Source of the DNA: an uncultured Chloroflexia bacterium
GTDB taxonomy: Bacteria; Chloroflexota; Limnocylindria; Limnocylindrales; CSP1-4
Length of the DNA stretch: 64,000 nt
Direction of reading: 5' to 3'
Assembly (NCBI GenBank): GCA_963760735.1
Contig: CAVXEB010000007.1
Span: forward strand, 543,930-607,929
A model generated the notes under the pieces. That model saw only the letters and a program-made list of their open reading frames with translations. It made no database searches and was not told where the DNA came from. Positions 4,274-50,028 of this stretch are shown piece after piece. The position numbers and the translations under genes are program-made. Position 1 is the first letter of the stretch; every line of letters starts with the position of its first letter.

Positions 4274-4285
4274 GACCCGACCGGA

Positions 4286-4960: not shown

Positions 4961-4970
4961 CGGGTCGCGG

Positions 4971-5666: not shown

Positions 5667-5986
5667 GCCAGGTCCCCTCCGAGTCGCTCGAGCCCCGTCC
5701 GCAGGAACCCCTCGAGCTGGGCGAGCTGTGCTCGCAGGGTGGTGGCACCGAGGCCCGTCAGGCGGTACGGCCGCCGTCGCTCGTCGGGCTCCATCGCCTC
5801 GATCAGGCCGCGACGCTCGAGCCGCGCCAGCGCCCCGTACAACGTCCCGGGCCCGAGCGGCGACCCGGACATCGCCTCGACGTCCGTCATGATCGCGTAG
5901 CCGTGTCGCGGCCCCGAGCTCAACGAAACGAGGATGTAGAGCGACGGCTCCGCGAAGCGTCCGAGCTGGCCGACCGGCTCGTTCAT
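5663..5986 (-). CDS. PadR family transcriptional regulator
   Basis: GPRHGYAI, GPGTLYGALARLE, RRRPYRLTGLG. Confidence 0.9.
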   Translation of the reverse strand: MNEPVGQLGRFAEPSLYILVSLSSGPRHGYAIMTDVEAMSGSPLGPGTLYGALARLERRGLIEAMEPDERRRPYRLTGLGATTLRAQLAQLEGFLRTGLERLGGDLA

Positions 5987-6231
5987 GCATGACCCTCCGT
6001 GCCCGCGGTCAGACGATACGCCGCCCGGCCCTCACCGTTCGTCGTGCATTCGATCAGCCGGCCCCGTTCCAGCCTGGCGATTGCCGCGTAGAGCGAGCCC
6101 GGACCGATCGGCCCGTCGAGGCGGCGGACCTCGTCGAACAGGCCGGACGCCGGACGCGGTCCGTCGCGGAGCGCGACGAGGACGAGCCTCGCCGGCTCCG
6201 CGAACCGCCCGAACCCCCGTCGGTCGACCAC
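5983..6231 (-). CDS. Short divergent PadR-like regulator
   Basis: GRFAEP...GPGSLYAAIARLE...YRLT; paralog of the adjacent PadR. Confidence 0.75.
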   Translation of the reverse strand: MVDRRGFGRFAEPARLVLVALRDGPRPASGLFDEVRRLDGPIGPGSLYAAIARLERGRLIECTTNGEGRAAYRLTAGTEGHA

Positions 6232-6232
6232 C

Positions 6233-6799
6233 TCAGTCGGCCACGATCACGCCGCACGCGATCCGACCACCGCTGTTGCCGTTCGTGGCATCGGTGACCT
6301 GGTCGTCTTCGTTCGCGTGGATGATGAACGCACTGCCGACGGCGTTGACGGTCTGGTCGAACAGGGTCGTCGGCCCGTCGGTCAGGGTGACCCGGTCCGT
6401 CGTCGCGTCGAGATGCGCGACGCCGGCGCCGTTCACGATCAGGTTCGGCAGGTCGCCCGCGTGCGCCCCGGCGGGGTTCAGAAGCCCGTGCTTCAGCCCG
6501 AGCGGGTTGTAGTGGCCGCCGGCCGCGGCGAACGTCGGGCCGCAGGCCGCGACCGAGTGGATGTGGATGCCGTGGAGGCCAGGCGTCAGGCCCTTCACGT
6601 GGACGTTGACGTGGACCGTGCCCGCGCCGTCCTCGATGAGCTTCGCCCAGCCGATGACCGCACCGCCGGCGTCGACGAAGGTTGCACTCGCGTGCGTCGC
6701 ACCACCTCCGGCCATTGAGCTGCCGGCAAATGCCGCCGTCAGGGCCACCAGCGCGCCGAACGCCGCGATGCCCGTGAGGACCTTGCTCCGGGTCGTCAT
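6233..6799 (-). CDS. sodC: Cu/Zn superoxide dismutase family protein, exported
   Basis: HGIHIH, GGHYNP, KHG, HAGDLPN, IIH, GGRIACG; signal peptide; GGAGG SD. Confidence 0.9.
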   Translation of the reverse strand: MTTRSKVLTGIAAFGALVALTAAFAGSSMAGGGATHASATFVDAGGAVIGWAKLIEDGAGTVHVNVHVKGLTPGLHGIHIHSVAACGPTFAAAGGHYNPLGLKHGLLNPAGAHAGDLPNLIVNGAGVAHLDATTDRVTLTDGPTTLFDQTVNAVGSAFIIHANEDDQVTDATNGNSGGRIACGVIVAD

Positions 6800-6825
6800 G
6801 ACCCACCTCCGAGATGCTCGCCTGA

Positions 6826-6865
6826 TGATATACCGCGTGTCGATATATCGTGTGGCGATATATAC
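6826..6865. promoter_or_regulatory. Triple operator-like box upstream of the sodC-padR operon
   Basis: TGATATACCG (6826), CGATATATCG (6841, perfect palindrome), CGATATATAC (6856) at 15-bp spacing. Confidence 0.7.
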
Positions 6866-6945
6866 ACCCGGTGAGGGCGATGTCAAGAGGCGAGTCGCAG
6901 CCGCAGCCCGTCGGGCGACCGAGCCACGCCGCTACAATCGCCGCG

Positions 6946-7744
6946 ATGGCCACCACGCGACGATGGGACGGCGCCGCCGACCTGATCCCCGCCCCGACCG
7001 GCCGGCGGCCGCGCCCGGAGATCGTGGCGCTCCCGGCCACGTCCCTCCCGTCGCTCGGCGAGCTCTTCACGTTCATGCGCGACGCCGAGCTCCGCTTCGA
7101 CACGCTCCGGATGCGGATCGAGGAGGTGTCGTTCACGGTCGGGCGGCGAGCACACCGTGGTCTCGGACGTCGTCATCCGCCATCCCGACCAGGCGAAGGT
7201 CACGACGAGCGTCCCCGACCACGAGCCGCGTGGGAGCTACGACATCTGGATCTCCGACGGCGCGACGGTCCGGACGTGGAGCGGCGTCCATCGGCTCGGG
7301 ACGCAGCGACCGGTCCGGCGGACGCTCGTCGGCATCAGCGGGCCCGAGGCGCACGACCTGCCGGGCACGTCCAGGGTGTACCGGCCGCTCACGGACCTGC
7401 CGATGGAGACGCTGCCCGACACGTTCATCCATCCGGCGGGCTACTGCCAGAACGTGCTGTCGACCGGTGACTGCCGGATCGTCGGCCTCGACGAGGTCTC
7501 CGGGCGCGAGACGATCGTGGTCGAGTGCGACCACCCTCGGACGATCGAGATCACGGCCGACCGGCCGGACTTCCGGATCCGGATGGCGGTCGACCGCGCT
7601 GACGGGGTGATCCTCCGGCTCGAGGAATCGATCGGCGGCGTGGCCACCCGGGACGCCCGCGCCACCGAGTACGCGCCGAATGCCCCACTCGCCCCGAACG
7701 CGTTCGACTTCGTGTTCCCGGCCGGCGCGACGATGCTCTTCTGA
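6946..7744 (+). CDS. LolA-like/outer-envelope carrier-fold hypothetical protein (frameshift near 7140)
   Basis: Two ORF pieces join; YDIWISDGATV and terminal AFDFVFPAGA resemble LolA-fold proteins; TACAAT -10 upstream. Confidence 0.55.
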
Positions 7745-7768
7745 CGAGCACCTCCGTCGCCTGAATCG

Positions 7769-7796
7769 GAACGCCCGGCCGGTGGCGGGGCGTTCG
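7769..7796. terminator. Hairpin between convergent genes
   Basis: GAACGCCC...GGGCGTTC inverted repeat. Confidence 0.5.
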
Positions 7797-7818
7797 TCAT
7801 GTCGAGCGGGATCGGGCC

Positions 7819-9441
7819 TCAGGCCTCGGCGAGCTCCAGCTCGCGCTCGATGGCGGCCAGCTCCTCAGGCGAACCCTGGACCTTGGGGCCCTTGAACCAG
7901 TTCTTGGCCGATACGACCCACCATAGCGCGGCGCCACCCAACACGATCAGGAACACGACCGGGGTGTAGTTGAACGTGGTGATGTTGATCGGCTGCGCCT
8001 GGGGAAGGGTGAACAGGATCACGATCACGATCACCCAGATCGTCCCGAGGATCCCGATCGGACGGCTCCAGCGGCCCAGCGTCCAGGGCCCTTCCTGGAA
8101 TTTCGAGCCCGCCCGCACGCGGAGGAAGACGGGGGCGATGTAGGCGACGTACAGGCCGATGACCGCGATCGACGTCACGGCGGCGTACGCGACCGGGCTA
8201 TAGAGGTACGGCAACGCGAGGATGAACGCGCCGACGGCCGCCAGCCAGATCGAGTTCGTTGGCGTCCGCGTCCGCGGATTGATTCGGTGCCAGAAGCTCG
8301 CACCGGGGACGGCGCCGTCACGCGAGAATGCGTAGATCATCCGCGAGTTGGCCGTGACCGACGACATCCCGCAATAGAACTGGGCGCCGATCACGAGCAG
8401 CAGGACGATCAAGCCGCCGGTCTGGCCCACGGCGTCGATCCAGATCTGGACGGGCGGACCGGCGTTGGACAGCGAGGCCGCCGAGTCGAGCGCGTGCTGA
8501 TAGCCGGCGACCGCGTTCGGCGTCCCGTCAGGGCTGGGAAACACCGTCTCTGGGGTGATCCCGACGTTCATCGCGGTGAGCAGGATGAACCCCATGATCA
8601 CCGAGACGACGACCGAGAAGACGATGCCGCGCGGAGCGGACGTGTCGGCGTGGTGCGTCTCCTCCGACATGTGGGCGGACGCGTCGAACCCGGTCAGCGT
8701 GTACTGCGCGTTGAGCAGTCCGATGAGCATCACGTAGAGCGGGATCCCGAGGACGATCGGACCCGGCCATTGGGGGTTGTCGCCGCCACTGCCGGTGTTG
8801 TTCACGAACGTCGAGAAGACGGTCCCGATGTCGGTCCGACTGTGCTGGTTCAGAACGACGCAAACCAGCACGATCGCGGAGACGCCGACGACGTGCCACC
8901 AAACGGAAACGTCATTGAGCACCTTCACCAGCCGGATCCCGAACGTGTTCAGAAGCCCGTGGATGAACAGCACGATCGCGAGGATCAGGATCGTGACCGG
9001 CGGCGCCGTCGAAACGCCCCACACGATGTTCAGGAAGGCGTTGATGAAGAACGCCAGGCCGAAGTCGATGCCGGCCGTGACGGCGACCTGACCGACGAAG
9101 TTGAACCAGCCGACGAACCAGCTCCAGGCTGCGGGATTCCCGCCGGACTCGGGCGCCAGCTTGGCCGCCCAGTAGTACAGCCCGCCGGCCGTCGGATAGC
9201 TCGAGGCGACCTCGGCCATTCCGAGCGCGACGAGGGTCACGAAGAACCCCACCACGAGCCAACCCAGCGTCATCACCGCCGGGCCGCCGGTGTTCATGGC
9301 GAAGTAGAACAGCGTGAGGCAGCCCGACAGGATCGAGATGATCGTGAAAGAGACCGCGAAGTTGGAGAACGTCCGCATCCCGCGGCGGAGCTCCTGGGCA
9401 TATCCGAGCCGGTGCAGCTGCTCGGTGTCCGAACCTGCCAT
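7819..9441 (-). CDS. APC-family amino acid/amine permease
   Basis: LGYAQELRR, FSNFAVSF, SSYPTAGGLY, GFDASAHMSEE, SRDGAVP; about 12 TM. Confidence 0.92.
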   Translation of the reverse strand: MAGSDTEQLHRLGYAQELRRGMRTFSNFAVSFTIISILSGCLTLFYFAMNTGGPAVMTLGWLVVGFFVTLVALGMAEVASSYPTAGGLYYWAAKLAPESGGNPAAWSWFVGWFNFVGQVAVTAGIDFGLAFFINAFLNIVWGVSTAPPVTILILAIVLFIHGLLNTFGIRLVKVLNDVSVWWHVVGVSAIVLVCVVLNQHSRTDIGTVFSTFVNNTGSGGDNPQWPGPIVLGIPLYVMLIGLLNAQYTLTGFDASAHMSEETHHADTSAPRGIVFSVVVSVIMGFILLTAMNVGITPETVFPSPDGTPNAVAGYQHALDSAASLSNAGPPVQIWIDAVGQTGGLIVLLLVIGAQFYCGMSSVTANSRMIYAFSRDGAVPGASFWHRINPRTRTPTNSIWLAAVGAFILALPYLYSPVAYAAVTSIAVIGLYVAYIAPVFLRVRAGSKFQEGPWTLGRWSRPIGILGTIWVIVIVILFTLPQAQPINITTFNYTPVVFLIVLGGAALWWVVSAKNWFKGPKVQGSPEELAAIERELELAEA

Positions 9442-9588
9442 CCCTTCCTCCATTCGTCGCATCTGACGATTCCCGGGACGCGGGGACTCCCCGTTCGCAA
9501 CAATAGGCTTGGCCGAATGGGGCGCACAAGGCGATGACGCGGTGGGTGGGCCCACGAACTCGGGCCCGTCCGGCGTCGGAGGTGGGCG

Positions 9589-10347
9589 ATGGGCGATCGA
9601 TTGGCCGGCAAGGTGACGATCGTGACCGGGGCCGGGTCGGGCATCGGCCAGGCGACCGCGATCCGGTTCGCCGAGGAGGGCGCCCGGGTCACCTGCGTCG
9701 ACATCGCGCAGGACGCCGTCATGGCGACGGCGTCCGGGATCGGTGACGCCGCCCACGCCGTGGTCGCCGACGTCTCGGATCCGGCGCAGGTTCGCGCCTA
9801 CACGGACGCCACCGTCGAGCGCTGGGGCGGGCTCCACGCGGTCTTCAACAACGCCGGGGTCAACATCCCCGGCGTGTTCCATGAGGTCCCCGACGAGGTG
9901 ATCGACCGGACGCTGGACGTCAACGTCAAGGGCTGCATCTACGGCTGCCGTTACGCGATCCCTCACATGCTCCGCGGCGGTGGCGGGTCGCTGATCAACA
10001 CGAGCTCCGTCAACGGGCTCGTCGCCGAGCCGTTCCTGGCCGTCTACGCGACGTCGAAGGGCGCGATCGTGATGCTGAGCAAGGGCATCGCCCTCGACTA
10101 CGCGAAGCAGGGCATCCGGTGCAACGCGATCGCCCCCGGCTGGGTCGACACGCCGATCAACTACGCCCATGCGGAGATGCTCGGCGGCCTCAGCGAGGTC
10201 TATGCGACGATCGACTCGTTCCAGCCGATCGGCCGGCCGGGCGAGCCGCGAGAGATCGCCAATGTCGCGCTCTTCCTCGCCTCGGACGAGTCGTCGTTCG
10301 TCACCGGCAGCGTCGTCGTCGCCGACGGCGGGATGACCGCGAAATGA
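9589..10347 (+). CDS. SDR oxidoreductase
   Basis: TGAGSGIG, NNAG, YATSK. Confidence 0.92.
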   Translation: MGDRLAGKVTIVTGAGSGIGQATAIRFAEEGARVTCVDIAQDAVMATASGIGDAAHAVVADVSDPAQVRAYTDATVERWGGLHAVFNNAGVNIPGVFHEVPDEVIDRTLDVNVKGCIYGCRYAIPHMLRGGGGSLINTSSVNGLVAEPFLAVYATSKGAIVMLSKGIALDYAKQGIRCNAIAPGWVDTPINYAHAEMLGGLSEVYATIDSFQPIGRPGEPREIANVALFLASDESSFVTGSVVVADGGMTAK

Positions 10348-10387
10348 CGTCCCCGGCAGGCCGCCGGACTGGCGGAGGAGGCTTCCG

Positions 10388-11806
10388 ATGACCACCGCGG
10401 CCCACGACGACCATGGCTCGCACCAGGGCGGTCCGGAGCACCCCCGTCTGCAGGAGCTCCAGGCGATGGTCCGCGACGGCAGGATCGACACGCTGATCGT
10501 CGCCCTCACCGACATGCAGGGCCGGCTCATGGGCAAGCGCGTCCAGGCCCAGGCGTTCCTGCAGGGCGTCATCGACCACGGCGCGCACTTCTGCACGTAC
10601 CTCCTCGGCACGGACATGGAGATGAACACGCCCGAGGGGTTCGCCCTGATGAACTGGGAGACGGGCTACGGCGACTGGATCGCCGAGCCGGTCTGGGACA
10701 CGCTGCGGGTCCTCCCGTGGCTGGAGAAGACGGCCCTCGTCCTGTCGGACACCTACACCGACGAGGACCACGGCGACATCCCGGTCTCGCCACGGACGAT
10801 CCTCAAGCGGCAGGTCGCGCGCGCGGCCGACGCCGGCATCGCCATCAAGGCCGGCTCGGAGTTCGAGTACTACGTCCTCAAGGAGTCATGGGAGGAGTCC
10901 GCCCGAGCCGGCTGGGGCATCCCGCAGCGGTTCGGCTACTACAACGAGGACTACCACCTCCTCCAGGCCACGAAGGCGGAGCCACTCCATCGCCTCCTCC
11001 GCAACCAGATGACGGAGGCCCGGATCCCGATCGAGTTCAGCAAGGGCGAAGCGGCTCCCGGCCAGCACGAGGTCAACATCCGCTACGACCACGTCCTCGA
11101 ATCGGCCGATCGGAGCGTCCTGTTCAAGCATGGGGCGAAGGAGATCGCCTACCTGAACGGCTGGGGCATCACGTTCATGTCGAAGCCGGACCACACCTGG
11201 ACCGGCTCGTCGGGCCATCTCCACATGTCGATCTGGGACGCCGCGGGCGACCATCCCCTGACCCACGACGAGGACGCCGGGCTGCCGTACGGCATCAGCC
11301 GCCAGTTCAGCCAGTTCGTCGCCGGGATGATGGCCCACTCGCGGGAGCTCGCCATCTTCATCGCCCCGAACATCAACTCGTACAAGCGCTACGCGTCGCT
11401 GTCGTGGGCGCCGGTCAACATTGTCTGGGGCCGCGACAACCGCACGACCGGCTTCCGGCTCGTCGGCCACGGGCCGTCGCTCCACGTCGAGAACCGCTTC
11501 CCGGGCGGCGACATGAACGCGTACCTCACCTACGCGGCGATGATCGGGGCCGGGCTGCGCGGCATCGAGCAGGGCCTGACGCTCGCCGACGAGTTCAAGG
11601 GCAACGGCTACGTCGCGACGGGCGTGCCGCGGATGCCGCGGGCCCTGTACGAGGCGATCGCGGAGCTCGAGAAGAGCGAGGCGGCCGTCGACATCTTCGG
11701 CCAGGACGTCGTCGACCACTACCTGAACGCCGCACGCGTCGAGCAGGAGACCTACGACGCGATGGTCCACGACTGGGATCGCGAGCGGTATCTCGAGCGC
11801 GCCTAG
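10388..11806 (+). CDS. Glutamine synthetase-like gamma-glutamyl ligase (GlnA4/PuuA type)
   Basis: DMQGRLMGKR, EFEY, KGEAAPGQHE, GSSGHLHMS, WGRDNRT, ENRFPGGD, C-terminal WDRERYLE. Confidence 0.88.
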   Translation: MTTAAHDDHGSHQGGPEHPRLQELQAMVRDGRIDTLIVALTDMQGRLMGKRVQAQAFLQGVIDHGAHFCTYLLGTDMEMNTPEGFALMNWETGYGDWIAEPVWDTLRVLPWLEKTALVLSDTYTDEDHGDIPVSPRTILKRQVARAADAGIAIKAGSEFEYYVLKESWEESARAGWGIPQRFGYYNEDYHLLQATKAEPLHRLLRNQMTEARIPIEFSKGEAAPGQHEVNIRYDHVLESADRSVLFKHGAKEIAYLNGWGITFMSKPDHTWTGSSGHLHMSIWDAAGDHPLTHDEDAGLPYGISRQFSQFVAGMMAHSRELAIFIAPNINSYKRYASLSWAPVNIVWGRDNRTTGFRLVGHGPSLHVENRFPGGDMNAYLTYAAMIGAGLRGIEQGLTLADEFKGNGYVATGVPRMPRALYEAIAELEKSEAAVDIFGQDVVDHYLNAARVEQETYDAMVHDWDRERYLERA

Positions 11807-11928
11807 CGGCAACCCGCCCAGACGGCAACGCCATAGGAGTCGTTCGGCAGACAGCGCCGGCCCGCGGCCGGACGGTATGCTCGCGGCCACGAGCGCCGGC
11901 CGGGCTCCGGCGCCTCTGAAGGAGCAGC

Positions 11929-14900
11929 GTGGCGTCCAAGGCTCAGGGATCGGGGACCCGCGCATCCGCGACGACGGACCTCGATGCCCTCCGGGCGCGC
12001 GTCGCCGAGCTCGAGGCGCGGGAGGCCGAGCACTCTCGATCCGAGCGTGTCCAGGCCGCGCTCTACCGGATCGCCGAGGCGGCCAGCGCCGCGACCGACC
12101 TCCCCGAGTTCTACCGGACGGTCCACGAGATCGTCGGCGAGCTGATGTACGCCCGGAACTTCTACATCGCCCTCCACGACGCCGACCGTGGGCGGATGAA
12201 CTACCCGTACTACATCGACGAATTCGACAAGGACGTCCCCGACCCGAACGCCTGGGAGCCGTTCGGCGAAGGTCAGGCGCGCGGGATCACGGCATACGCA
12301 CTGCGCCTCGGCCGTCCGTTGCGGATCGACGGGGCGGCGTACCGAGACCTCATCGAGCGCCAGGAGATCGAGCTCCTTGGTGTCGTGACGGACGAGGCGG
12401 TCTGGATGGGTGTCCCACTCCCGGCCGAGGGACACAGCCAGGGCGTGCTCGTGATCCAGAGCTACTCCACGGACCATCGCTACTCGGACAGTGACCTGGA
12501 CCTGCTCACATTCGTCGGTCAGCACGTCGGATCCGCGCTGAGCCGGGTCCGCGCCATCGAGGAGACCCGCCAGCGAAACGCCGAGCTCGCTGTCATCAAC
12601 GAGATTGGTGCGGCCCTCGCCCGGCAGCTCGACTTCGACTCGATCTGCGAGGTTGTCGGGGAGCGGGTCCGATCGATCTTCGGTTCTCGCGATATGTATG
12701 TCGCGATCCACGACAGCGCGACCAACATCATCCGATTCGCGTACGAGGTCGTGGCCGGGGACCGGATCCACAGCGAGTCCATCCACCTCGGCGAGGGACT
12801 GACCTCGGAAGTCATTTCCTCGAAGCGCCCGCTCCTCCTCCGCACCTACGAGGAGAGCGTCGAGCATGGAATGATCGCCGTTGGCACACGTGCGGAGTCA
12901 TGGCTCGGCGTGCCGATCATGGCCGGCGACCGGGTCCTCGGGGTGATCGCGCTGGAAGACCTCCGCCCACACGTGTTCGGGGACGCCGACGAGCGACTGC
13001 TGAGCACGCTCGCTGCCGGCATGGGCGTCGCGCTCGAGAACGCGCGCCTGTTCGACGAGACGAAGCACCTCCTGGCCGAGTCGACCGAGCGCGCGGCCGA
13101 GCTCGCGGTCATCAACGAGATCAGTGCCGCGCTCGCCCAGCAGCTCGACTTCAACGCAATCACCGAGCTTGTCGGCGAACGCGTTCGCGAGCTCTTCGAT
13201 GCCCGTTCGATCTTCATCGCCCTGCATGATCCCGTCACGAACACGATCTCGTGGCCGTACGACATCGACGAGGGCGAGCGGTTCGAACGCGGCGTCTATC
13301 CGTTCGGGCCAGGGATGACCTCGCGCGTGATCCAGACCGGCAAGCCGCTCCGCGTCGGCACGTCCGCCGAGCAAACGGCGGCCGGTGCCGTGCAAGCTGG
13401 CGGGACGGACACCAAGTCCTGGCTCGGCGTGCCGATCACCGGTGCGGACCGGGTCATCGGCGTCCTCGGACTCGAGAGCGTCCAGGAACACGCATACACG
13501 GATGGTGACGAGCGGCTGCTCAGCACGCTGGCCGCCAGCATGGGCGTCGCGCTCGAGAACGCCCGCCTGTTCGACGAGACGAAGCGGCTCCTGACCGAGA
13601 CGGATGCGCGAGCCGCCGAGCTGGCAGTCGTCAACGAGGTCCAGGGCGGGCTGGCCCAACAGCTAGACTTCGACGCCATCGTCCAACTCGTCGGCGACCG
13701 GATCCGCCGGATCTTCAAGGCTCGGACCATCTATATCGGCGTTCTCGACGCCGCCACCGGGATGTTGTCGTTCCCGTTCGATTTGACAGACGGTGAACCG
13801 GTCCACACGGAGCCGTACGTCGTCGGGCCAGGGCCCGTCTCGATCGTCGTACAGACCTCGAAGCCGCTCCTGCTGCGGAGCTCGGAGGAGGCGCGGCGGG
13901 TCGGTCATGTCGACTACGGCACCCCAACGGAGTCATGGCTCGGCGTCCCGATCGTCACCGGCGACCGTGTCTTCGGCGCGCTCGTCGTCGAGTCCCCGGA
14001 ACGCGATGCCTATGACGACGGTGACCAACGACTGCTCTCGACCCTGGCATCGAGCATGGGCGTGGCGCTTGACAACGCCCGGCTGTTCGACGAGACGAAG
14101 CGCCTTCTGACCGAGACCGACGAGCGCGCCAGCGAGCTGTCGGTCATCAACGAGATCGGCTCCGCGCTCGCCGAGCAGCTCGAGTTCGACTCGATCATCG
14201 AGCTCGTCGGCAAGCGGATCGCCGACATCTTCCACGTCGACGCGCTCCAGGTGCTCCAGTACCACGAGGCCGCCGGCCGGATCGAGCGCCGCTACGGGAT
14301 CGAGGCCGGCGTCCGGAGCGAAACGATGGCCTTCCCGTTCGGCGAAGGGCTGACGTCGCGGGTGATCCGGTCCCGGACGCCGCTGAACATCGGGTCGGAC
14401 GACGACCTGAACGCGGCCGGGGCGATCCGGACGGGCCTCCGCAACGAGTCGTGGCTCGGTGTCCCGATCCCGGCGGGCGACCGGATCTTCGGCGTGATCG
14501 CCCTCGAGAGCATGAAGAAGCAGGCGTTCGACGAGCCCGACGTCCGCCTGCTGAGCACCCTCGCATCGAGCATGGGCGTCGCCCTCGAGAACGCCCGGCT
14601 GTTCGACGAGACGAAGCGCCTCCTGACCGAGACGAACGAGCGGGCTGCCGAGCTCGCACTGATCAACGACGTCCAGCGCGGCCTCGCCGAGAAGCTCGAC
14701 ATCCAGGCGATGTACGAGCTCGTCGGCGACAAGATCCAGGAGATCTTCGACGCCCAGGTCGTCGACATCGGGATCTACGACAGCGACGAGGACATGATTC
14801 GCTTCCCGTACGCGATCGAGCGCGGCGTGCGCTTCCCGGACGACGCGATCCCGATCCGCGGCTTCAGCCAGTACGTCCGCGACCGACGAGAGCCGGTCCA

Positions 14901-17900
14901 TGTCTCCGGCGACCTGTCGGGGTGGCTGGTGGAACGCGGGTACGAGCCGGCGGTCACCCAGGGAGAGGACGCCAAGACGGTGCTCTTCGCGCCGATGATC
15001 GTCGGCGACGAGGTCCGTGGCCGGATCTCGCTCCAGAACCTGGACCGCGAGGACGCCTTCAGCGAGTCGGACGTCCGGCTGCTGACGACGCTCGCCGCCA
15101 GCCTGAGCGTCGCCCTCGAGAACGCCCGCCTGTTCGACGAGACCCGTCGCCTCCTGACCGAGACGAACGAGCGGGCCGCCGAGCTGGCCCTGATCAACGA
15201 CGTCCAGAGCGGGCTCGCGAAGAAGCTCGATCGCCAGGCGATGTACGACCTCGTCGGCGACCGGATCCAGGCGATCTTCGACGCTCAGGTCGTCGACATC
15301 GGCGTGGTGGACAGCGGAGTCGAACGTAGTCCACTTCCCGTACACGATCGAGCGCGGGCGTGCGATTCCCGGAGGAGCCGATGCCGATCCGTCGGCTTCC
15401 GGAAGGCCGTGATCGAGTCGCGCAGACCGCTCCGCGTCAACCGCGACACTCAGGCGCGGTCGCCGAGAGCGTGCGCGTCGAGCAGGGCCCGATCCTCCAG
15501 GCGAGCTAGCCGACTGTCCGGGCTGTGGGTCCCGTCGACGGTGGGCGACGAGGTCCGAGGCGTCATCTCGCTCCAGAACCTCGACCGGGAGGACGCCTTC
15601 AGCGACTCGGATGTCGAGCTGCTGACGACGCTCGCGTCGAGCCTGAGCGTCGCCCTCGAGAACGTCCGCCTGATCGACGAGACGCGCCAGCGCCTGGCGG
15701 AGCTGGCGACGTGAACGAGGTCGGCAACGCGCTCGCGACCCAGCTCGACCTCGACAACCTGATCCAGCTCGTCGGCGACCAGATGCGCCGGACCTTCGAG
15801 GCGGACATCGTCTACGTGGCGCTCCACGAGGCCGACCGGGGCTGATCCGTTCCCGTACTACAACGAGTTCGGCAGCGCGGACCGGCCAGGAGGCGATCGC
15901 CGTACGGCGAGGGCCTCACGTCGGAGATCATCCGGGATCGGCACGGTCAGCTCCTCCTCAACCGCGAAGCGGACTGGGAGGCCCTGGGGACCCGCGGCGT
16001 CGGCACGCAGTCGAAGTCATACCTCGGTGTGCCGATCATCGCGGCGACCGGGCGATCGGGGCGATCAGCGTCCAGAGCACGAACCGGGAAGGCCGATTCA
16101 GCGAGTCGGACGCCCGGCTCCTTCGACGATCGCGGCGAACGTCGGCGATCGCGCTCCAGAACGCGCGGCTCTTCCGGAGGCGCACCGCCGCGGCGACGAG
16201 ATGGCGGTGCTCGCGGAGGTCGGCCAGGAGATCTCGGCGACGCTCGAACGCCGCGACGGTCATCGACCGCATCGGGGAGCGGGTCCATAGTCTGCTGGCG
16301 GCCGACACGACTGCGCTCTTCGGCGCCGACCCGGACGGGCGGACGTTCCGCGCGATCCTCGCCATCGGCGAGCTCGCCGACGCGATCCGCGCCGACGCGA
16401 TCACGGAAGGCGAAGGGATCATCGGCGACGCGATCCGGACGGGGACGCCGCAGTTCGTCAACGACGCTCGGCACGGACCCCGGACGGTCGATATCCCGGA
16501 CACCGACGAGCACGACCCCCGAGCTCGAGCGCCTGATGATCGCGCCGCTCGATCGCGCGCGACCGGGTCACCGGCGCCGCGGCGATCTGGCGCACGGCGG
16601 GCGAACCGTTCAGCCAGGCGGACCTCGACTTCCTCGTCGGGCTCGCCCGCCAGGCGTCGATCGCCCTCGAGAACGCCCGCTTGTTCGGCGCTGCGCAGGA
16701 CGCGCAGGCCGCGGCCGAGGCGGCGAACCAGGCGAAGAGCGCGTTCCTCGCGTGCGATGAGCCACGAGATCCGGACGCCGATGAACGCGGTGATCGGGAT
16801 GAGCGGCCTGCTCCTCGAGACGGAGCTCGACCCGGAGCAGCGTGACTTCGCCGACACCATCCGGACGTCGGGCGACGCCCTTCTGACGATCATCAACGAC
16901 ATCCTCGACTTCTCGAAGATCGAGGCGGGCAAGGTCGACCTCGCGGCGGAGCCGTTCTCCCTCCGGACGTCGGTCGAGAGCGCCCTCGACGTGGTCGCGC
17001 CGACGCCGCGAGGAAGGGCGTCGAGCTCGCTTATGCGATGGGCGCCGACCTGCCGGAGGCCATCGTCGGCGACGCCGGACGACTCCGCCAGATCGTCCTC
17101 AACCTGCTCTCGAACGCGATCAAGTTCACCGAGCATGGCGAGGTCGTCCTGTCCGTCGAGGCCAAGCCAGGGCGACCGGACGCCCGCGAGCAGTGGACGA
17201 TCGACATCGACGTGCGGGACACGGGCATCGGGATCGCGGCGGACCGGATGGACATGCTGTTCCAGTCGTTCAGCCAGGTCGACGCATCGATCCGCCGGCG
17301 GTACGGCGGGACGGGCCTCGGCCTCGCGATCAGCCGGCGCCTCGCGGAGTCGATGGGCGGCACGCTGTCGGCGACAAGCAGCGGCGTCGCCGGCGAGGGC
17401 AGCACGTTCCACCTCGGTCCTGCCCGCCCAGGCGACGACGCTGCCCGACGCGCCGCCGGCGGCACCGGAGCGGAGCATCCGCGGCTGCCGGATCCTCGTC
17501 GTCGACGACAACGCAACGAACCGCCGGATCATCACGAGCTTCCTCGGCGCTGGGGCGTCGACGGCGAGGCGACCGCCTCGCCGAAGGAGGCGCTGACGTG
17601 GGTTCGCGCCGGTCGGGAGTTCGACGCGGCCGTCCTCGACTTCCTGATGCCCGAGCTGGACGGCGTCGAGCTCGCCGAGGCGCTGCTGAAGCTGCGGCCG
17701 GACCAGCCGATGCCGGTCGTCATCCTGTCGTCGATCGGCCAGCACGCCCGGCACGGCCGCGAACATCACCTCGACGCTCATCAAGCCGGTCAAGCCGTCC
17801 GCCCTGCATGACGCGCTCGCGGACGCGCTTGCGGGACTCGGCCGCCGACGATGTCCGTCGACGCCGCGCCCGGAGCCGCAGCCGCGACGCCGAGACGCCG

Positions 17901-18328
17901 CCAGGTCACGCCGGCCGCGAGCGCGACCGACGTGTCGCGCGACGGCGCTGCGCATCCTCCTCGCCGAGGACAACGCGGTGAACCAGAAGCTGGCGCTGCG
18001 GTTGCTCGAGCGGATGGGCTTCCGGGCCGAGGTCGTGGACGACGGTCGGGCGGCCGTCGAGGCGATCGGCGATGGCGAGTACGACGTCGTCCTGATGGAC
18101 GTCCAGATGCCGGAGATGGACGGCCTCGAGGCGACCCGTCAGGTGCGGTCGCGCTGGCCGGATCGACCGATCCGGATCATCGGCCTGACCGCCAACGCGA
18201 TGGCCGGCGACCGCGAGGCCTGCCTCGCCGCCGGGATGGATGACTACGTCAGCAAGCCGATCCGCCCCGAGGAGCTCGAGGCGGCGATCGCAAAGGCCCG
18301 ACCAACCCTGACCGGAGGACCTGCATGA
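11929..18328 (+). CDS. Giant cytoplasmic hybrid histidine kinase: 9 GAF + HisKA + HATPase + 2 REC (multiple frameshifts after about 15320)
   Basis: Repeated SWLGVP...[11 protein letters not shown] units; [11 protein letters not shown]-box; [23 protein letters not shown]; LVVDDN and LLAEDN...[10 protein letters not shown] receivers. Confidence 0.88.
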
Positions 18329-19947
18329 CCCCACCCGGCGACGGAACGACCCAGCCGGGGCGGATCCTGGTCGTCGACGACACCGCGTTCAACCGGCAGC
18401 TGCTGGCGCGGTTGCTGCGCGGGATCGGCCACGAGCCGGTCGAGGCCGAGGATGGCCGCAAGGCCCTCGATCGGCTGCGCGACCCGGACCAGCCGCCGAT
18501 CGACGTGATCCTCCTCGACATCCTGATGCCGGAGATGGACGGCTACCAGGTCCTCGAGGCGCTGGCGGCGGACCCGGCCCTGCGGCATCTGCCGGTGATC
18601 GTCATCTCCGGGGTCGACGAGCTCGACAGCGTCGTCCGCTGCCTCGCGATGGGCGCCGCCGACTACCTCCCGAAGACCGTCGACCCGGCGATCCTCCAGG
18701 CCCGGATCGCGTCGTCGCTCGCCCGGAAGCGGCTCCACGACGCAGAGCGTGAGGCCGTCGACCGCCAGGCCGCGACGAACGAAGTCCTCGCAATCATGAG
18801 CCGTTCGGCGTTCGATCCCCAGGTCGTCCTGGAAGCGGTCGTCCGGGCCGCGGTCCGGCTGTGTCGGGCCGACTACGGCGTGGCCTACGTCCTCGACGGT
18901 AGCTCGTACCGGGTCGCCGCCTCGGCCGGCGGCACGCCGGAGCTGGACGACTGGGAGCGCGACCACCCGATCCGACCGGGGCGGGAGACGGTCGTCGGGC
19001 GAGTCGCCCTGATCGGCGAGGCGATCCGGGTCGACGACGTCCTCGCCGACCGCGAGTACCAGGCGAGCCCGGGCCAGGCGGTGGGCGGCTATCGCACCCT
19101 GGTCGGCGTCCCGATGGCACAGGACGGAGCGGTCAGCGGCGTGCTCGCCCTGACCCGCAACGAGGTCCGCCCGTTCACCGATGCCGAGACCGCGCTCGCG
19201 GTCGGCTTTGCCGAACAGGCGGCGATCGGGATCGCCAACGCCCGGCTGCTCGAGACGATCGAGCGGCAGCGCGGCCAGCTCGCGAGGTTCCTGTCGCCCC
19301 AGGTCGCCGAGCTCGTCTCGAGCGCCGAGGGAGAGGCGATGCTCGCCGGCCATCGCCGGGAGATCACCGCGATGTTCTGCGACCTGCGCAACTTCACGAC
19401 GTTCTCCGAGGCGGCCGAGCCGGAGGAGGTCCTCGGGTTCCTGCGCCGCTACCACGCGACGGTCGGCGCACTCGTGGTGGAGCACGAGGGCACGCTCGAG
19501 CACTTCGCCGGGGACGGGATCATGGTCTTCTTCAACGACCCGGCCCTCCAGGACGACCACGCCGCGCGAGCCGTGCGAATGGCGATCGCGATCCGTGAGC
19601 GGTTCGTCGAGATCAGCGAGGAATGGCGCCGTCGCGGCCACGTCCTGCAGGTCGGGATGGGGATCGCGACGGGCTACGCGACGATGGGCCGGATCGGGTT
19701 CGAAGGCCGCTACGACTACGGCGGCATCGGCAACGCGATCATCCTCGCGTCGCGGCTCAGCAGCGAGGCTGTGGCCGGCGAGATCCTGATCTCCCAGCGG
19801 ACCTACGCGGCGATCGACGGCCAGATCGAGGCCGAGTCCGTGGGCGAGCGCCAGTTCAAAGGGTTCAGCCGGCCGATGGAGACGTACCGCGTCGGGGCCG
19901 CGGATCGCCGCGGGGCGGTGGCGGCTCCGGCCGCGGAGGCCTCATGA
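18325..19947 (+). CDS. Response regulator REC-GAF-class III nucleotide cyclase
   Basis: ILVVDD...[11 protein letters not shown]; GAF; [21 protein letters not shown]. Confidence 0.92.
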
Positions 19948-20312
19948 ACGCCGGTCTCCCGATCGATCCGGTCGCCTTCGCGAATCTCGTCGAGATGACA
20001 GGCGGCGACTACGGATTCATCGACGACCTCGTCGACACGTACCTCGAGGAGGGCGTCGGGCTCATCGACGGGCTCCGCGCCGCCGCGTCGTCGGGCGTGC
20101 CCGACGATCTCGTCCGGCCGGCGCACTCCCTGAAGTCGAGCAGCCAGAACATCGGGGCGACCGGGCTCGCCGACGCCTGTCGGAGCCTCGAGGAGGAGGC
20201 CCGCGGCGGCGCCGTGCCGGACGCGCCGGAACGCGTCGCGGACATCGCCACGGCATTCGACGCGGTCCGGATCGCGCTGCTCCAGGAGCGGGCCCAGCGC
20301 GCCGCCGGCTGA
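19944..20312 (+). CDS. Hpt phosphotransfer protein
   Basis: AHSLKSSSQNIGA; ATGA overlap with the cyclase. Confidence 0.9.
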   Translation: MNAGLPIDPVAFANLVEMTGGDYGFIDDLVDTYLEEGVGLIDGLRAAASSGVPDDLVRPAHSLKSSSQNIGATGLADACRSLEEEARGGAVPDAPERVADIATAFDAVRIALLQERAQRAAG

Positions 20313-20354
20313 GGGCGACGCGCCGGATCCTTTCGTCAGCCGCCGACGAACCGA

Positions 20355-21641
20355 TCAGGGAGCGTCCCGTCGCCAGGCAGGCAGGGAGCCGACCTGCCAG
20401 TCGACGTGCGACTCAACGCCAGTCGCCGGGTCGATCGAGACGAAGTCGTCCTTCGTGAGGTACAGGAGGATCGACTTGCCGTCGGGCGACCAGATCATGT
20501 CGAGCGACGTTCCATCGCCATTGAAGTGGTGCTTGCCGATCTCCCTCGCGGGTCCGCTGCCGTCCGCAGGGAACAGGACCAGCCAGACTGCCGACGGATC
20601 GAACGTGAACCGCTGCGCCATGATCGTCGTCCCGTCGGGTGAAAGCCTCGCCCACGCCTGATTCACGCCGTCCACCGGGGCCGGCAGCCGGACGTCGCCC
20701 GACCCATCGGGGTTGACGAGGTGCATCCGGAACTGGCCGTCGCCGGTCTTCGGGTTCCGCTCGACGGCGTTGTACGTGATCCGGTCGCCGTTCTGGTTCC
20801 AACCGGCGCCGGACAGGTCGTACTCCGGGCCAAAGATCTGCTCGCTGGGCAGACCGAGCGCGTGGAGCTCGGAGCCGTCGGTCCGAACCGTGAACAGGTC
20901 GACCGAACCATCCGGTTTCTGGGCGCGGATGAGGAACTCCCGATCGTCGGGCGGCCGCCACTGGAAGTCCATCAGGGTCAGGTCGCCGAGCGGAACCGTG
21001 GTCAGGCCGGTTCCGTCGACGTTGACGACCTGGAAGATCCGCCGACCGTCGACCATCGAGGCGACGGCAAGCCGTCGACTATCGGTTGACGACTGGATCC
21101 AGGGGTTGGGGTCGACGAGCAGCTGCGGGAGGACGCGAACCGGGTTCGAGCCGTCCGCGGCGGCCGACATCAGGTAGACCGATGTCCCCTCGTGGCGGAA
21201 GAACACCAGTCGCTCGTTGTCCGCACCGAGGTAGCCGGGGCCGTCGTCGTTGGTGTCGCCCGTCAGGAGCGGACGGATGGCGCTGGTCAGCGAGTCGCGG
21301 ATGAAGAGATCGCCACCCTGGGAGAAGACGAAGGGCCCGTTCGCAGCCGGTCCGAACGGCGGTGGGGCATGCCGTCGCGAACCGACGACGAACAGGGTCG
21401 CGGCGAGGATGACGGCGATCAGGGCGAGGACGCCGATCACGCGCCACGGGATCGGAACGTTCGGCAAGCGCCGAGCGGCGAGGTCCATGGGGATCCACCT
21501 TTCGGGGAACGTCCAGGCAGGCCGCTGCCGATGCGTCGCGGTCTGCTCGAACAGCTCATCTCGGTAGTCGGGGGTCCCGGCGAGGTACATCTCGGCGAGG
21601 AGCGCCGGGAGGTCCTGCTCGAGACGTCGCGGAGTGGTCAT
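20355..21641 (-). CDS. Membrane-anchored TolB-like beta-propeller protein (probable anti-sigma partner)
   Basis: One TM then repeated V..DGS/WSPDG motifs; overlaps the sigma factor stop. Confidence 0.75.
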   Translation of the reverse strand: MTTPRRLEQDLPALLAEMYLAGTPDYRDELFEQTATHRQRPAWTFPERWIPMDLAARRLPNVPIPWRVIGVLALIAVILAATLFVVGSRRHAPPPFGPAANGPFVFSQGGDLFIRDSLTSAIRPLLTGDTNDDGPGYLGADNERLVFFRHEGTSVYLMSAAADGSNPVRVLPQLLVDPNPWIQSSTDSRRLAVASMVDGRRIFQVVNVDGTGLTTVPLGDLTLMDFQWRPPDDREFLIRAQKPDGSVDLFTVRTDGSELHALGLPSEQIFGPEYDLSGAGWNQNGDRITYNAVERNPKTGDGQFRMHLVNPDGSGDVRLPAPVDGVNQAWARLSPDGTTIMAQRFTFDPSAVWLVLFPADGSGPAREIGKHHFNGDGTSLDMIWSPDGKSILLYLTKDDFVSIDPATGVESHVDWQVGSLPAWRRDAP

Positions 21642-22201
21642 GCGAGCTGCCCTCCCACGACGACGTCGGTGCCGGGTTCGTCTCGGGCGGACACGGACCG
21701 GCGCATCGCGGCGAGCGCGTAGTGCAGCCGGGACTTGGCCGTCCCGAGCGGGATGCCGAGGGATGCCGCCACCTCGGGCAGCGGCAATCCCAGCAGGTAG
21801 TGCAGGGCGACGACCGCTCGATGCTCCGGATCGAGGCGCGCCAGCGCCTCGTCCAGGACCTGGCGATCGTCGACGCCGCCGGTCGCGTCCATCGCGACCG
21901 GGACGTCGAGTGGGGTGAGCTCGACCTCGATCACCCGCCGGCGTCGGCGGCGAACGAGGTCGAGACAGGCATGCATCAGGAGTCGGTGGAGCCAGGCATC
22001 GAGACGGTCCGGGTCGCGGAGGACCGGGATGTCCCGCCAGGCTCGGATGGATGCCTCCTGGACCGCGTCGTGCGCGAGCTCCGGGTCCCGGAGGATCAGT
22101 CGGGCCGCCGCGTCCAGCCGCGCAAGGCGCGCGTCGAGCAGGGTCGTGAAGGCGTCATGATCGCCTCGCCTCGCCCGCTCCACGAGTCCTCGCTGGTCCA
22201 C
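21638..22201 (-). CDS. ECF RNA polymerase sigma factor
   Basis: ARRGDHDAF, AHDAVQE, WLHRL, EVAASLGIPLGTAKSRLHYA. Confidence 0.92.
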   Translation of the reverse strand: MDQRGLVERARRGDHDAFTTLLDARLARLDAAARLILRDPELAHDAVQEASIRAWRDIPVLRDPDRLDAWLHRLLMHACLDLVRRRRRRVIEVELTPLDVPVAMDATGGVDDRQVLDEALARLDPEHRAVVALHYLLGLPLPEVAASLGIPLGTAKSRLHYALAAMRRSVSARDEPGTDVVVGGQLA

Positions 22202-22292
22202 GGTCGCCTCGTCTGCGGCACGGCCAGGACGGTCGTGCTTGCCACAGTAGGCGTCGGGCCAACACGAATCGTTCAGCTGTTTCGGGCGCGCG

Positions 22293-22955
22293 CTACCAAA
22301 TGCGAGCGGCGAGCTGGGCGTGGCCGGCCGCTGCCGCGAGGTCGGCCGCCGTCCGGCCGTCGTCCGTCCGGGCGGTTCGGTCCGCGCCTGCGGCCAGCAG
22401 CCGGTCGACCGTCGTCTCCGCTCCGTTCTGGGCGGCGCCATGGAGTGGCGTGTAGCCGCCGCGCTGGGTCGCGTTCACGTCCGCGCCGGCCGCGATGAGG
22501 ACCGCGACGACATCGTCGTGGTTGCCGGCGCACGCCGAGTGGATCGGCAGGACGTCGAAGTCGTTCGCCGAGCGCGCGTCCACGTCCGCGCCGGCGTCCA
22601 GCAGCGCCCGGGCGACGGTGGCTGCGTCCCGCCCGCCGAAGAACGCCGTGTAGTGGAGCGCGGTGAACCCGTCCGGGCTGGACGCGCGGGCCAACGACGG
22701 ATCGGCAGCCAGGAGCTCCCGAACGCGGTCGGCGCGTGCCAGCGCCGCCACCTCGAACACATCGAGGGCCGGCAGCGCCGAGGCGAGCTGCTCGGCGATC
22801 GCCGGCCGGCCCCGATACAGGGCATGCATCGTGGCGCTGACGCCATGGCCGTCCCGGGCTGCGGCGAGATCCGGGTCGGCCCCGAGCATGGCGTCGACGG
22901 CGGCCTCGTCACCCGCATCGATCGCCTGGAGCAGATCGGCGGCGGTCGCGGTCAT
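22293..22955 (-). CDS. Ankyrin repeat protein
   Basis: [34 protein letters not shown]. Confidence 0.9.
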
Positions 22956-23111
22956 CGGTCCGATCCTGCTGGGGTCATCGGTCGATGGTAGTTGCCTCCT
23001 CGGCGACACCTGACCGCGAGTACCATCGACGGACCGCGCGGGATCGCGGTTCATCCGGCGCTCGGCCCATCCCGCCGGCGGCGCCCCGCAGCCCGAGGGA
23101 GGCCTTCGACC

Positions 23112-23879
23112 GTGCGTCTCCAGGACAAGGTCACGATCATCACCGGGGCCGGCGGCGGCATGGGCCGGACGGCCGCCCGGATGTTCGCCGCCGAAGGCGC
23201 CCGGGTCGTCTGCGTCGACGTGACCGAGGAGATGGCCGAATCGGCGGCCGCCGAGGTCCGGGCGGCGGGCGGCGAGGCGACCGCGGTCGCCGCGGACGTG
23301 TCGCAGGAGGACCAGGCCAAGCGGATGGTCGATCACACGGTCGCGACGTACGGCCGGGTCGACGCCCTGTACAACAACGCCGGGATCATGCCCGCCGCGG
23401 ACCACTCGGTTGTCGACACGGACGTCGCGACGTGGGACAAGGTCATGGCCGTCAACGTCCGCGGCGTGTACCTCGGCTGCAAGTTCGCCATCCCGAAGAT
23501 GGTCGAGCAAGGCTCCGGCTCCGTGATCAACGTCGCGTCGTTCGTGGCGATCCTCGGCTGCTCCGTGCCCCAGGACGCCTACACGGCGTCGAAGGGCGCC
23601 GTCCTCGCGCTGACGAAGAGCCTCGCGGTCCAGTTCGCGCCGCAGGGCGTCCGGACGAACTCGATCTCGCCCGGGCCGATCGAGACGCCGCTCCTCTTGG
23701 ACTGGCTCGTGAAGGACGAGGAGGCGAAGCGGATCCGCCTGGCCCGGAACCCGACCGGCCGCTTCGGCAAGCCCGAGGAGATCGTTCATGTCGCGCTGTA
23801 CCTCGCGTCGGACGAGAGCCGCTGGACGAACGGGGCGAACCTCGTGATCGACGGCGGCATCACCGTCAACTACTTCTGA
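23112..23879 (+). CDS. SDR oxidoreductase (type found in GlnA4 clusters)
   Basis: [22 protein letters not shown]; GGAGG SD. Confidence 0.9.
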
Positions 23880-23889
23880 GGCCGGCCGG

Positions 23890-24702
23890 ATGGACGCGCC
23901 ATCGACCAACCGGATCGCCGTGGGGGTTGACGTCGGCGGAAGTGGGATCAAGGCCGCCGTCGTGGACCTCGATCGAGGTCTGCTGGCGGGACCCCGCCTG
24001 CGGGTCGCGACCCCCCAGCCGTCGACGCCGGACGTCGTCGTCCCGGTCATCATCCGGACCGTTCGTCGGGCCCTCGTCGAGATGGGCGTCATCGCCGGCC
24101 GCAATGCGGTGGTTCGCTTCCCCGTTGGCGTCGGGATGCCCTCGGTGGTCATCGACGGCGTCACGAAGACCGCTGCGAACATCGACCCCGGTTGGGTCGA
24201 TTTCGACCTCGGCTCGCGGCTCCGCGACGTGTTCGCGGGGACCGTTGTCGTCCTCAACGACGCGGATGCCGCCGGTCTCGCCGAGATGCGATTCGGGGCC
24301 GGCGCCGGCGAGCGCGGCGTCGTGTTCGTCCTGACCCTCGGGACCGGCCTCGGGTCCGGCCTGTTCAACGACGGCGTGCTCGTCCCGAACACGGAGCTCG
24401 GCCACATGGAGATCCGCGGCCGGGACGCCGAAAAGCGGTCGGCCGCCGTCGCCCGGACCAGGCGGGGCCTGTCGTGGAAGGCCTGGGCGACCGACCTCGA
24501 CGAGCATCTCCACGCGATCGATCGGCTGTTCTGGCCGAACCTGATCATCCTCGGTGGTGGCGTGAGCAAGAACGCCGACAAGTTCATCCCACGCCTGACG
24601 GTCCGGCCGCACGTCGTGCCGGCGACGCTTCGCAACGACGCCGGGATCGTCGGTGCCGCGCTGGCCGCGGGGGAGCACTACGTCGAGGGTGGGGTGACCT
24701 GA
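23890..24702 (+). CDS. ppgK: Polyphosphate glucokinase (ROK family)
   Basis: [43 protein letters not shown]. Confidence 0.85.
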
Positions 24703-47081: not shown

Positions 47082-47113
47082 CAGACGCAGGACGATCGAC
47101 CGGAGTCGCCCGC

Positions 47114-50010: not shown

Positions 50011-50028
50011 CCCGCGGGAAGCCTGCGG

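Follow-up and report, generated by a model that had tools for sequence, protein, structure and literature searches.

Can a histidine kinase whose reading frame is broken in many places head a working signalling operon and, if so, what does that operon produce? The question is raised by positions 11929..20312 of a 64,000-nucleotide stretch of DNA (hereafter the window; G000:C7:543930-607929) from a 3.84 Mb, 71% G+C, seven-contig assembly of a Limnocylindrales-type Chloroflexota bacterium from soil. These positions hold a real, translationally coupled three-gene signalling operon that encodes, in this order, a hybrid histidine kinase, a response regulator with a receiver (REC), a GAF domain and a class III nucleotidyl cyclase domain, and a histidine phosphotransfer (Hpt) protein. 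From the sequence and its comparison with relatives, we think it probable that the operon specifies a multistep phosphorelay with a class III nucleotidyl cyclase under receiver control as its output, the frame changes in the kinase being assembly errors. The operon comprises the following features.

11929..18328, plus strand: hybrid histidine kinase gene, one gene in relatives and lying in three frames here; the orthologue has 2122 amino acids
15316..17932, plus strand: patch of 22 frame changes, from GAF7 to REC1, found by frameshift-aware alignment and read as very probable assembly indel errors
18325..19947, plus strand: REC-GAF-class III cyclase gene, 540 amino acids, intact (Pfam; match to CyaB, 3r5g)
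19944..20312, plus strand: Hpt phosphotransfer protein, 122 amino acids (Pfam Hpt; AHSLKSS; ATGA overlap)
11920-15714, 15674-17596, 16846-17811, 16887-17981, 17690-18328, 18244-19947 and 19599-20312, plus strand: stop-to-stop open frames

Operon layout and kinase architecture

The kinase starts with a GTG at 11929, and an AAGGAG at 11919-11924 ends 4 nucleotides before it. The cyclase ATG at 18325 overlaps the kinase TGA (18326-18328), and the Hpt ATG at 19944 overlaps the cyclase TGA (19945-19947), so that both ATGA overlaps reported in a first-pass annotation of this DNA are found at the start and stop codons. The same annotation placed a REC-GAF-class III cyclase and an Hpt downstream of the kinase, and Pfam agrees (REC-GAF-Guanylate_cyc in 540 amino acids; Hpt in 122). 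The kinase itself divides as follows.

12034..16701, plus strand: array of nine GAF domains, 165-177 amino acids per unit (Pfam, unit map, linker motif at each unit end)
16732..16930, plus strand: HisKA (DHp), Pfam 70.7 bits against a cut-off of 26.9, in frame 15674-17596
17068..17431, plus strand: HATPase_c, Pfam 92.3 bits in the open frame 16846-17808 and 98.9 bits in the G015 orthologue
17492..17836, plus strand: receiver 1, split over two frames (partial Pfam match of 29.9 bits; three-frame translation)
17954..18292, plus strand: receiver 2, intact (Pfam Response_reg, 102.3 bits; frame 17690-18328)

The orthologue in the same-genus genome G015 (L009:5828-12193) is a single open reading frame (ORF) of 2122 amino acids, in which a domain count with Pfam gives nine GAF domains, HisKA, HATPase_c and two Response_reg domains. 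Together with the Pfam matches on the window frames, this bears out the order HisKA-HATPase-REC-REC proposed for the region after the array. In the window, Pfam matches seven GAF stretches in the first ORF (11929-15714) and the ninth GAF as two fragments in two frames, one half in 15674-17596 with HisKA and the other in 16540-16842; GAF8 is visible solely through alignment to the G015 orthologue. This alignment puts the unit ends at 12561, 13056, 13596, 14091, 14607, 15138, 15678, 16176 and 16701, within about 30 nucleotides of those of the first-pass annotation, which had counted the same nine GAFs. The units are joined by conserved helical linkers, with the linker motif at every unit end. 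It had also been claimed that the kinase lacks transmembrane segments and PAS domains; indeed, no PAS family is matched by Pfam in the operon proteins or the G015 orthologue, and we take all three operon proteins to be soluble because no 19-residue Kyte-Doolittle hydropathy window exceeds 1.46.

Pairwise identity in the G015 kinase is 38-62% among units 2-8, and about 21-36% between unit 1 or 9 and the others. Across the kinase orthologues L009, L011, L013, L023, L024 and L012, units 2, 8 and 9, at the ends of the array, map one to one, while the middle units vary in number and order, giving totals of nine (G015, window), seven (G014, L024) and six (L023) by a mapping that is approximate, as the unit-end pattern missed the first unit in several orthologues and one boundary in G007. 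At least seven GAFs are present in the G007 kinase and at least five in that of G016, both ended by the contig end. This pattern suggests that middle units have been gained, lost and reshuffled within the array.

A probable phosphorelay ending on the cyclase receiver

The phospho-acceptor residues are intact throughout, as the proposal of a phosphorelay demands. The H-box of the kinase, SHEIRTP, lies at 16760-16780, with the phospho-acceptor His encoded at 16763-16765. In REC1, the DD pair, acceptor Asp, Ser and Lys are readable over two frames, and are intact in G015; REC2 has its acceptor Asp at codon 18098-18100, with Ser/Thr and Lys. The Hpt protein (PF01627, 50.2 bits against a cut-off of 24.6) carries His61 in AHSLKSS at codon 20124-20126. 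The receiver of the cyclase protein has D18, D19, D65 (codon 18517) and K117, of which the three Asp are invariant and the Lys nearly so in 49 relatives. The gene set is kept in relatives. Because these residues are intact, a His-Asp-His-Asp relay ending on the cyclase receiver is the likely wiring.

In such a relay, the nine cytoplasmic GAFs, on continuous helical linkers, would sense one or more intracellular ligands or states and so set the autokinase activity of HisKA/HATPase. Phosphate would pass from the His at codon 16763 to the Asp of the kinase's own receiver or receivers, then to His61 of Hpt and finally to Asp65 of the REC-GAF-cyclase, where receiver phosphorylation may alter the pairing of cyclase domains in a homodimer and thereby switch cyclic nucleotide synthesis. 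The GAF between receiver and cyclase could serve as a second, independent input, and the cyclic nucleotide would act on effectors encoded elsewhere in the genome. The statement that the operon lacks a DNA-binding regulator is correct within the operon; the gene for an extracytoplasmic function (ECF) sigma factor at 21638-22441 lies outside it, on the opposite strand.

The active site of the cyclase

What the cyclase domain makes, and whether it makes anything, depends on a catalytic site that departs from the canonical one.

~18364-18708, plus strand: REC of the cyclase protein (Pfam)
~18814-19233, plus strand: GAF of the cyclase protein (Pfam)
~19357-19890, plus strand: cyclase domain (Pfam)
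19501, 19720 and 19741, plus strand: codons of His393, Gly466 and Ile473, from alignment positions

The domain matches PF00211 (Guanylate_cyc) with 74.4 bits against a cut-off of 21.9, and its best solved relative is CyaB of Pseudomonas aeruginosa (3r5g; E 2.8e-38, 135 bits, residues 341-525). Aligned to CyaB, the metal-site Asp pair (D353, D397), Arg477 and the C-terminal Lys512 are kept, and three canonical residues give way to others: His393 stands for Lys, Gly466 for Asp/Thr and Ile473 for Asn. From the 120 best matches, 49 relatives (74-100% identity) were taken in list order for comparison, and all 49 share these seven residues; D353 and D397 are likewise invariant in 13 of 13 receiver-cyclases of several phyla. 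At the first specificity position (three residues before GD; LEHFAGDG here) these 13 have His (6), Arg (4), Gln (2) or Asn (1), and none has Lys; at the second (DYGGIG here) they have Gly (10), Ala (1) or Thr (2). The transition-state Asn is kept in eight of them and is Ile in five, all Chloroflexota. We know of no characterised precedent for His at the first specificity position.

According to the excerpted text of PMC4215837, adenylyl cyclases are recognised by Lys and Asp and guanylyl cyclases by Glu, and in most class III cyclases an Asn-Arg pair stabilises the transition state. With His393 and Gly466, the operon cyclase has neither adenylyl cyclase combination (Lys with Asp, or Lys with Thr in class IIIb), nor does it have the guanylyl cyclase Glu at the first position, and of the Asn-Arg pair only Arg477 is present. 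The nucleotide product is not predictable from the cyclase sequence. The first-pass annotation had named a cyclic nucleotide as the output, which remains plausible; the case is weaker than was claimed, in view of His393, Gly466 and Ile473.

The same three residues are the basis of a rather unlikely alternative, that the domain has little or no catalytic activity and, as a pseudo-enzyme, acts by binding a nucleotide or a partner. Their fixation in all 49 relatives fits such a loss, as does the restriction of the Asn to Ile change to the Chloroflexota sequences among the 13 aligned, given the role of the Asn-Arg pair in most class III cyclases. Invariance of D353, D397, Arg477 and Lys512, however, is not expected of a dead site. 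Moreover, the same excerpt of PMC4215837 describes Ma1120 as an adenylyl cyclase that is active with Ala at this position, and in which restoring the Asn lowered activity, and Cya2 as a guanylyl cyclase that works with a Glu-Gly pair, that is, with Gly at the second specificity position. On these precedents, a missing Asn and a Gly at the second position are compatible with activity.

Frame breaks: assembly error or gene decay

The first-pass annotation treated the kinase as one ORF, to be confirmed as such, and named real frameshifts as what would undo its reading. The sequence as given does not contain a single ORF. When the G015 protein was aligned to the DNA with frameshifts allowed at a heavy penalty, 22 frame changes were required at 78% identity over 2109 codons, with none in 11929-15315 and none in 17933-18322; the flanks of the broken 2.6 kb within the operon, 3.4 kb and 2.4 kb long, are thus free of them. 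A global DNA alignment of window and G015 (MAFFT; 81% identity) concurs: 23 indels have lengths not divisible by three, and all of them lie in 15312-17930, whereas every other coding-region indel is a multiple of three. Indel counts from blastn against G015 were too noisy, with paired one-base gaps throughout, and were replaced by tblastn frames, a Viterbi frame scan based on G+C content at third codon positions (GC3) and the frameshift-aware alignment.

These breaks are very probably assembly errors rather than gene decay. All functional motifs can be read in the frame pieces, for example the REC1 acceptor segment, Ser and Lys across two frames. Divergence from G015 at codon positions 1, 2 and 3 is 0.139, 0.115 and 0.283 in the broken stretch (position-3 ratio 2.23) and 0.170, 0.122 and 0.342 in the intact 5' part (ratio 2.34). 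As divergence and codon-position bias are alike in the two parts, there is no sign of relaxed selection; an old pseudogene with 22 indels should carry extra, evenly spread substitutions, and the kinase shows none. Furthermore, four of five same-genus orthologues (G015, G014, G007 and G016) have this part in one open frame.

Breaks of this kind also occur elsewhere in the assembly. The genome-wide GC3 scan gave 288 frameshift-like events and 20 patches of at least three; 154 of the 288 lie within 1.5 kb of another event, against a uniform expectation of 20%. Two further frame-switch patches fall in the window (35335-35641 and 46306-50398), and others include G000:C2:401509-409927, C1:329193-333558 and C7:69664-75124. 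By tblastn frames, three of the 21 window genes with a G015 counterpart are split over frames: the kinase and two others, at 47113-48047 (three frames) and 50029-51185 (two frames), both 95-100% identical in protein to G015. Finally, contigs from four independent short-read soil metagenome runs, compared at 88% likeness or more and with uncovered parts not counted as evidence, carry the G015 state at eight of the window indel sites (16122, 16148, 16175, 16256, 16752/3, 17004, 17418 and 17748), with site 16752/3 in that state in all four runs.

Several observations weigh against the reading as a whole, in which an intact kinase feeds a working cyclase. The short-read contigs belong to relatives (88-99% alike), not to the same strain, and the best candidate for the source reads, a sequencing run containing 0.07 of the words, leaves the artefact argument indirect. 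The window indels are not tied to homopolymers and show no simple error signature. The kinase has two receivers, either of which could be on the relay path; a close relative, L021, has no same-strand kinase directly upstream among the ORFs listed; and the three changed canonical residues mean that the cyclase may be inactive.

That run's low share of the words and the lack of a link to homopolymers would equally suit a genuine pseudogene in this strain, in which the 3' half of the kinase has decayed and any input to the orphaned REC-GAF-cyclase and Hpt comes from other kinases. In favour of such decay, the 22 frame changes stand in the sequence as given, and the G013 orthologue (L010, G013:C20, minus strand 3735-9073) is likewise split into at least two frames, a three-GAF piece and a GAF-HisKA-HATPase-REC-REC piece. 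We nonetheless consider decay decidedly unlikely: divergence at codon positions 1 and 2 is no higher in the broken than in the intact part, the position-3 bias is the same in both, breaks are absent from the 5' 3.4 kb and from both downstream genes, and the frame-break patches are assembly-wide, even in genes 95-100% identical to G015. The assembly thus carries local patches of indel errors, and apparent pseudogenes in it need a check before being read as such.

Possible ligands of the GAF domains

If the breaks are errors and the kinase is whole, its input would be the nine-GAF array, for which the nearest solved GAFs by sequence are the GAF-A domains of DosT and DevS of Mycobacterium tuberculosis (2vzw, 2w3d), with E-values of 1.5e-12 to 4.5e-11. 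These GAFs also resemble the kinase units in their context, a soluble multi-GAF histidine kinase. DevS/DosT GAF-A binds haem through a proximal His, which we take to be the His in the ...YHPPMRTFLGVP segment; unlike these, the kinase GAF has Gly at the aligned residue, and none of units 2-6 of the kinase has a His at that position. The GAF of the cyclase protein is of a different subtype, with no match to the kinase GAFs at E < 1e-3; its best solved match is again DosT/DevS GAF-A (E 3.2e-06), and the closest paralogue within the genome shares 28-36% identity with it.

One reading that would tie these features together is that the His/Gly/Ile site, fixed in this Chloroflexota clade along with the kept metal Asp, Arg and Lys, belongs to a class III cyclase whose substrate or product differs from cAMP and cGMP, that the inserted GAF senses the product or a co-signal, and that the poly-GAF kinase is a fast-evolving combinatorial integrator feeding a new second messenger; we regard this as a long shot.

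The first-pass annotation had suggested that the cyclic nucleotide product feeds back onto the GAF array. GAF domains can bind cyclic nucleotides, cAMP acts on GAF-B of Anabaena CyaB1, and the operon combines ten GAFs with a cyclase, so that the product could close a loop by binding the kinase array or the cyclase's own GAF. The latter has a weak match to PDE2A GAF-B (E 0.0076), the best in a range of 0.0076-0.79 against cyclic nucleotide-binding GAFs. But both GAF types are closest to DosT/DevS GAF-A, kinase GAF3 matches the cyclic nucleotide-binding GAFs of PDE5 and CyaB2 only at E 0.003-0.044, and poly-GAF arrays also stand beside kinase-partner cyclases without a GAF. The suggestion thus found no support for the array, and a feedback loop through either type of GAF appears very unlikely. 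There is next to no chance that the cyclase is a Pycsar-type anti-phage pyrimidine cyclase: PADLOC PycC models do match the domain (best E 6.6e-18, 63 bits), but more weakly than Pfam Guanylate_cyc or CyaB, which is expected of class III folds in general, its neighbours are Hpt and kinase and not an effector gene, and it is embedded in a two-component operon conserved by descent.

Distribution of the cassette and probable gain of the cyclase GAF

Counting one genome per species, at least 592 relatives were confirmed, the closest among the matches listed being from Candidatus Limnocylindrales / Chloroflexota. In the protein database, 7935 proteins reached E <=1e-20 among 8000 candidates scored, and the best 120 proteins listed (75-100% identity) all have REC, GAF and cyclase. 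ORFs were listed for 16 of 80 retained loci, and those of 13 were searched with Pfam. In 11 of the 13, from at least six phyla-level groups, the gene immediately upstream on the same strand encodes a histidine kinase, with inputs made of HAMP or dCache-HAMP-GAF (Binatia, Variovorax) or of 2, 4, 6, 7 or 9 GAFs; at one other locus the upstream ORF has 10 GAFs. A stand-alone receiver stands between kinase and receiver-cyclase in five of the 13 loci, and an Hpt is present in three. We also observed that L028, L029, L033, L039 and L046, from other phyla, have an extra stand-alone receiver gene with stop/start overlaps and no Hpt. These five cassettes are a different wiring of the same output.

The operon is a member of a widespread cassette family with ordinary two-component logic and an uncommon output. 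Its local particulars are the kinase-cyclase-Hpt order, the GAF inserted in the response regulator and the His/Gly/Ile active site. The earlier description of an uncharacterised signalling system stands insofar as the cassette has had no experimental study; on the other hand, it is very common and ordinarily wired. Our literature search, outside which most subscription journals lay, found no paper on a poly-GAF kinase, Hpt and receiver-cyclase cassette or on Limnocylindria signalling.

Comparison with a 79%-identical GAF-less form (L023:10816-11958) shows the cyclase GAF as a clean block, about 165 residues long, within a helical linker (window 18748-19254, residues 142-310). GAF-bearing receiver-cyclases occur in eight of 18 genus genomes at 75-87% identity (87% for the G015 form), and in four of the 18 the receiver and cyclase parts adjoin without a GAF; the remaining six, which are 64-84% complete and include G010, have weaker matches only. 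As none of the receiver-cyclases scanned from other phyla has a GAF between receiver and cyclase, this GAF was probably gained within the Limnocylindrales-type lineage.

Comparison with known systems

Receiver control of a class III cyclase has a precedent in CyaC of Spirulina platensis and Anabaena, a type IIIb enzyme with receiver, GAF, histidine-kinase and receiver domains. According to the excerpted text of PMC3009899, Spirulina CyaC is activated when the receiver adjacent to its cyclase is phosphorylated, and the Anabaena enzyme is up-regulated through its N-terminal receiver; the algal two-component cyclase opsins are a further example of a receiver-controlled cyclase (PMC6284317). The operon resembles CyaC in placing a class III cyclase under the control of a kinase and a receiver, with GAFs present. 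Unlike CyaC, which has two GAFs in a single polypeptide and lacks an Hpt, it consists of three genes with stop/start overlaps (split alike in G015), nine GAFs in the kinase and a separate Hpt; it also has a GAF between receiver and cyclase, and His, Gly and Ile at the three canonical positions.

The kinase core matches the NCBIfam models of TorS/BarA/ArcB/LuxQ-type hybrid kinases with E-values of 1e-98 to 1e-132, all below the curated cut-offs; no NCBIfam model reaches its cut-off for the kinase, the cyclase or the Hpt. The TorS, BarA, ArcB and LuxQ-LuxU-LuxO relays share with the operon a separate or fused Hpt step followed by a response regulator. However, their sensors are periplasmic or membrane-bound, whereas the operon has a soluble nine-GAF input and tandem receivers, and its response regulator bears a cyclase where that of a LuxO-type relay bears a DNA-binding domain. 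P. aeruginosa CyaB, a membrane-anchored enzyme with a MASE2 sensor, aligns with the operon cyclase at the metal Asp pair, Arg and C-terminal Lys, but has Lys, Thr and Asn where the latter has His393, Gly466 and Ile473.

Limnocylindria-type Chloroflexota are abundant, uncultured soil bacteria. Cyclic-nucleotide signalling appears to be a large part of regulation in this genome, because it has 28 matches to the class III cyclase domain (PF00211) and 14 to the cyclic nucleotide-binding domain (PF00027). A relay from a nine-sensor kinase to a cyclase whose active site has unpredictable specificity offers a tractable entry point, since the genes for the cyclase and the Hpt protein are unbroken and short enough for expression.

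Surroundings of the operon

The genes around the operon are as follows.

9589-10347, plus strand: short-chain dehydrogenase, in the region directly upstream, with the same order in G015
10388-11806, plus strand: glutamine-synthetase-like gene upstream of the kinase, scoring under the cut-offs of both the type III and the type I glutamine synthetase models
20355-21641, minus strand: ORF of 428 amino acids with no Pfam or NCBIfam match, following the ECF sigma gene and, like it, convergent with the operon
21638-22441, minus strand: ECF sigma factor, convergent with the operon

The dehydrogenase and the glutamine-synthetase-like gene are 94-95% identical to their G015 counterparts, whose order is kept. 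Rfam at gathering thresholds gave no match in 9000-23000. Between 9300 and 20700, a promoter consensus scan found no promoter-like site, and a terminator scan found one terminator-like site, inside the kinase, which is fewer than in shuffled sequence and gives no signal of an operon boundary. The 428-residue ORF at 20355-21641 is probably the anti-sigma partner of the ECF sigma factor. Further downstream, a minus-strand ORF at 22293-24635 has ankyrin repeats confined to its C-terminal end (about 22300-22600), and a plus-strand gene at 23106-23876, 96% identical to a G015 protein, overlaps its middle; the true ankyrin gene probably covers much less than the whole ORF.

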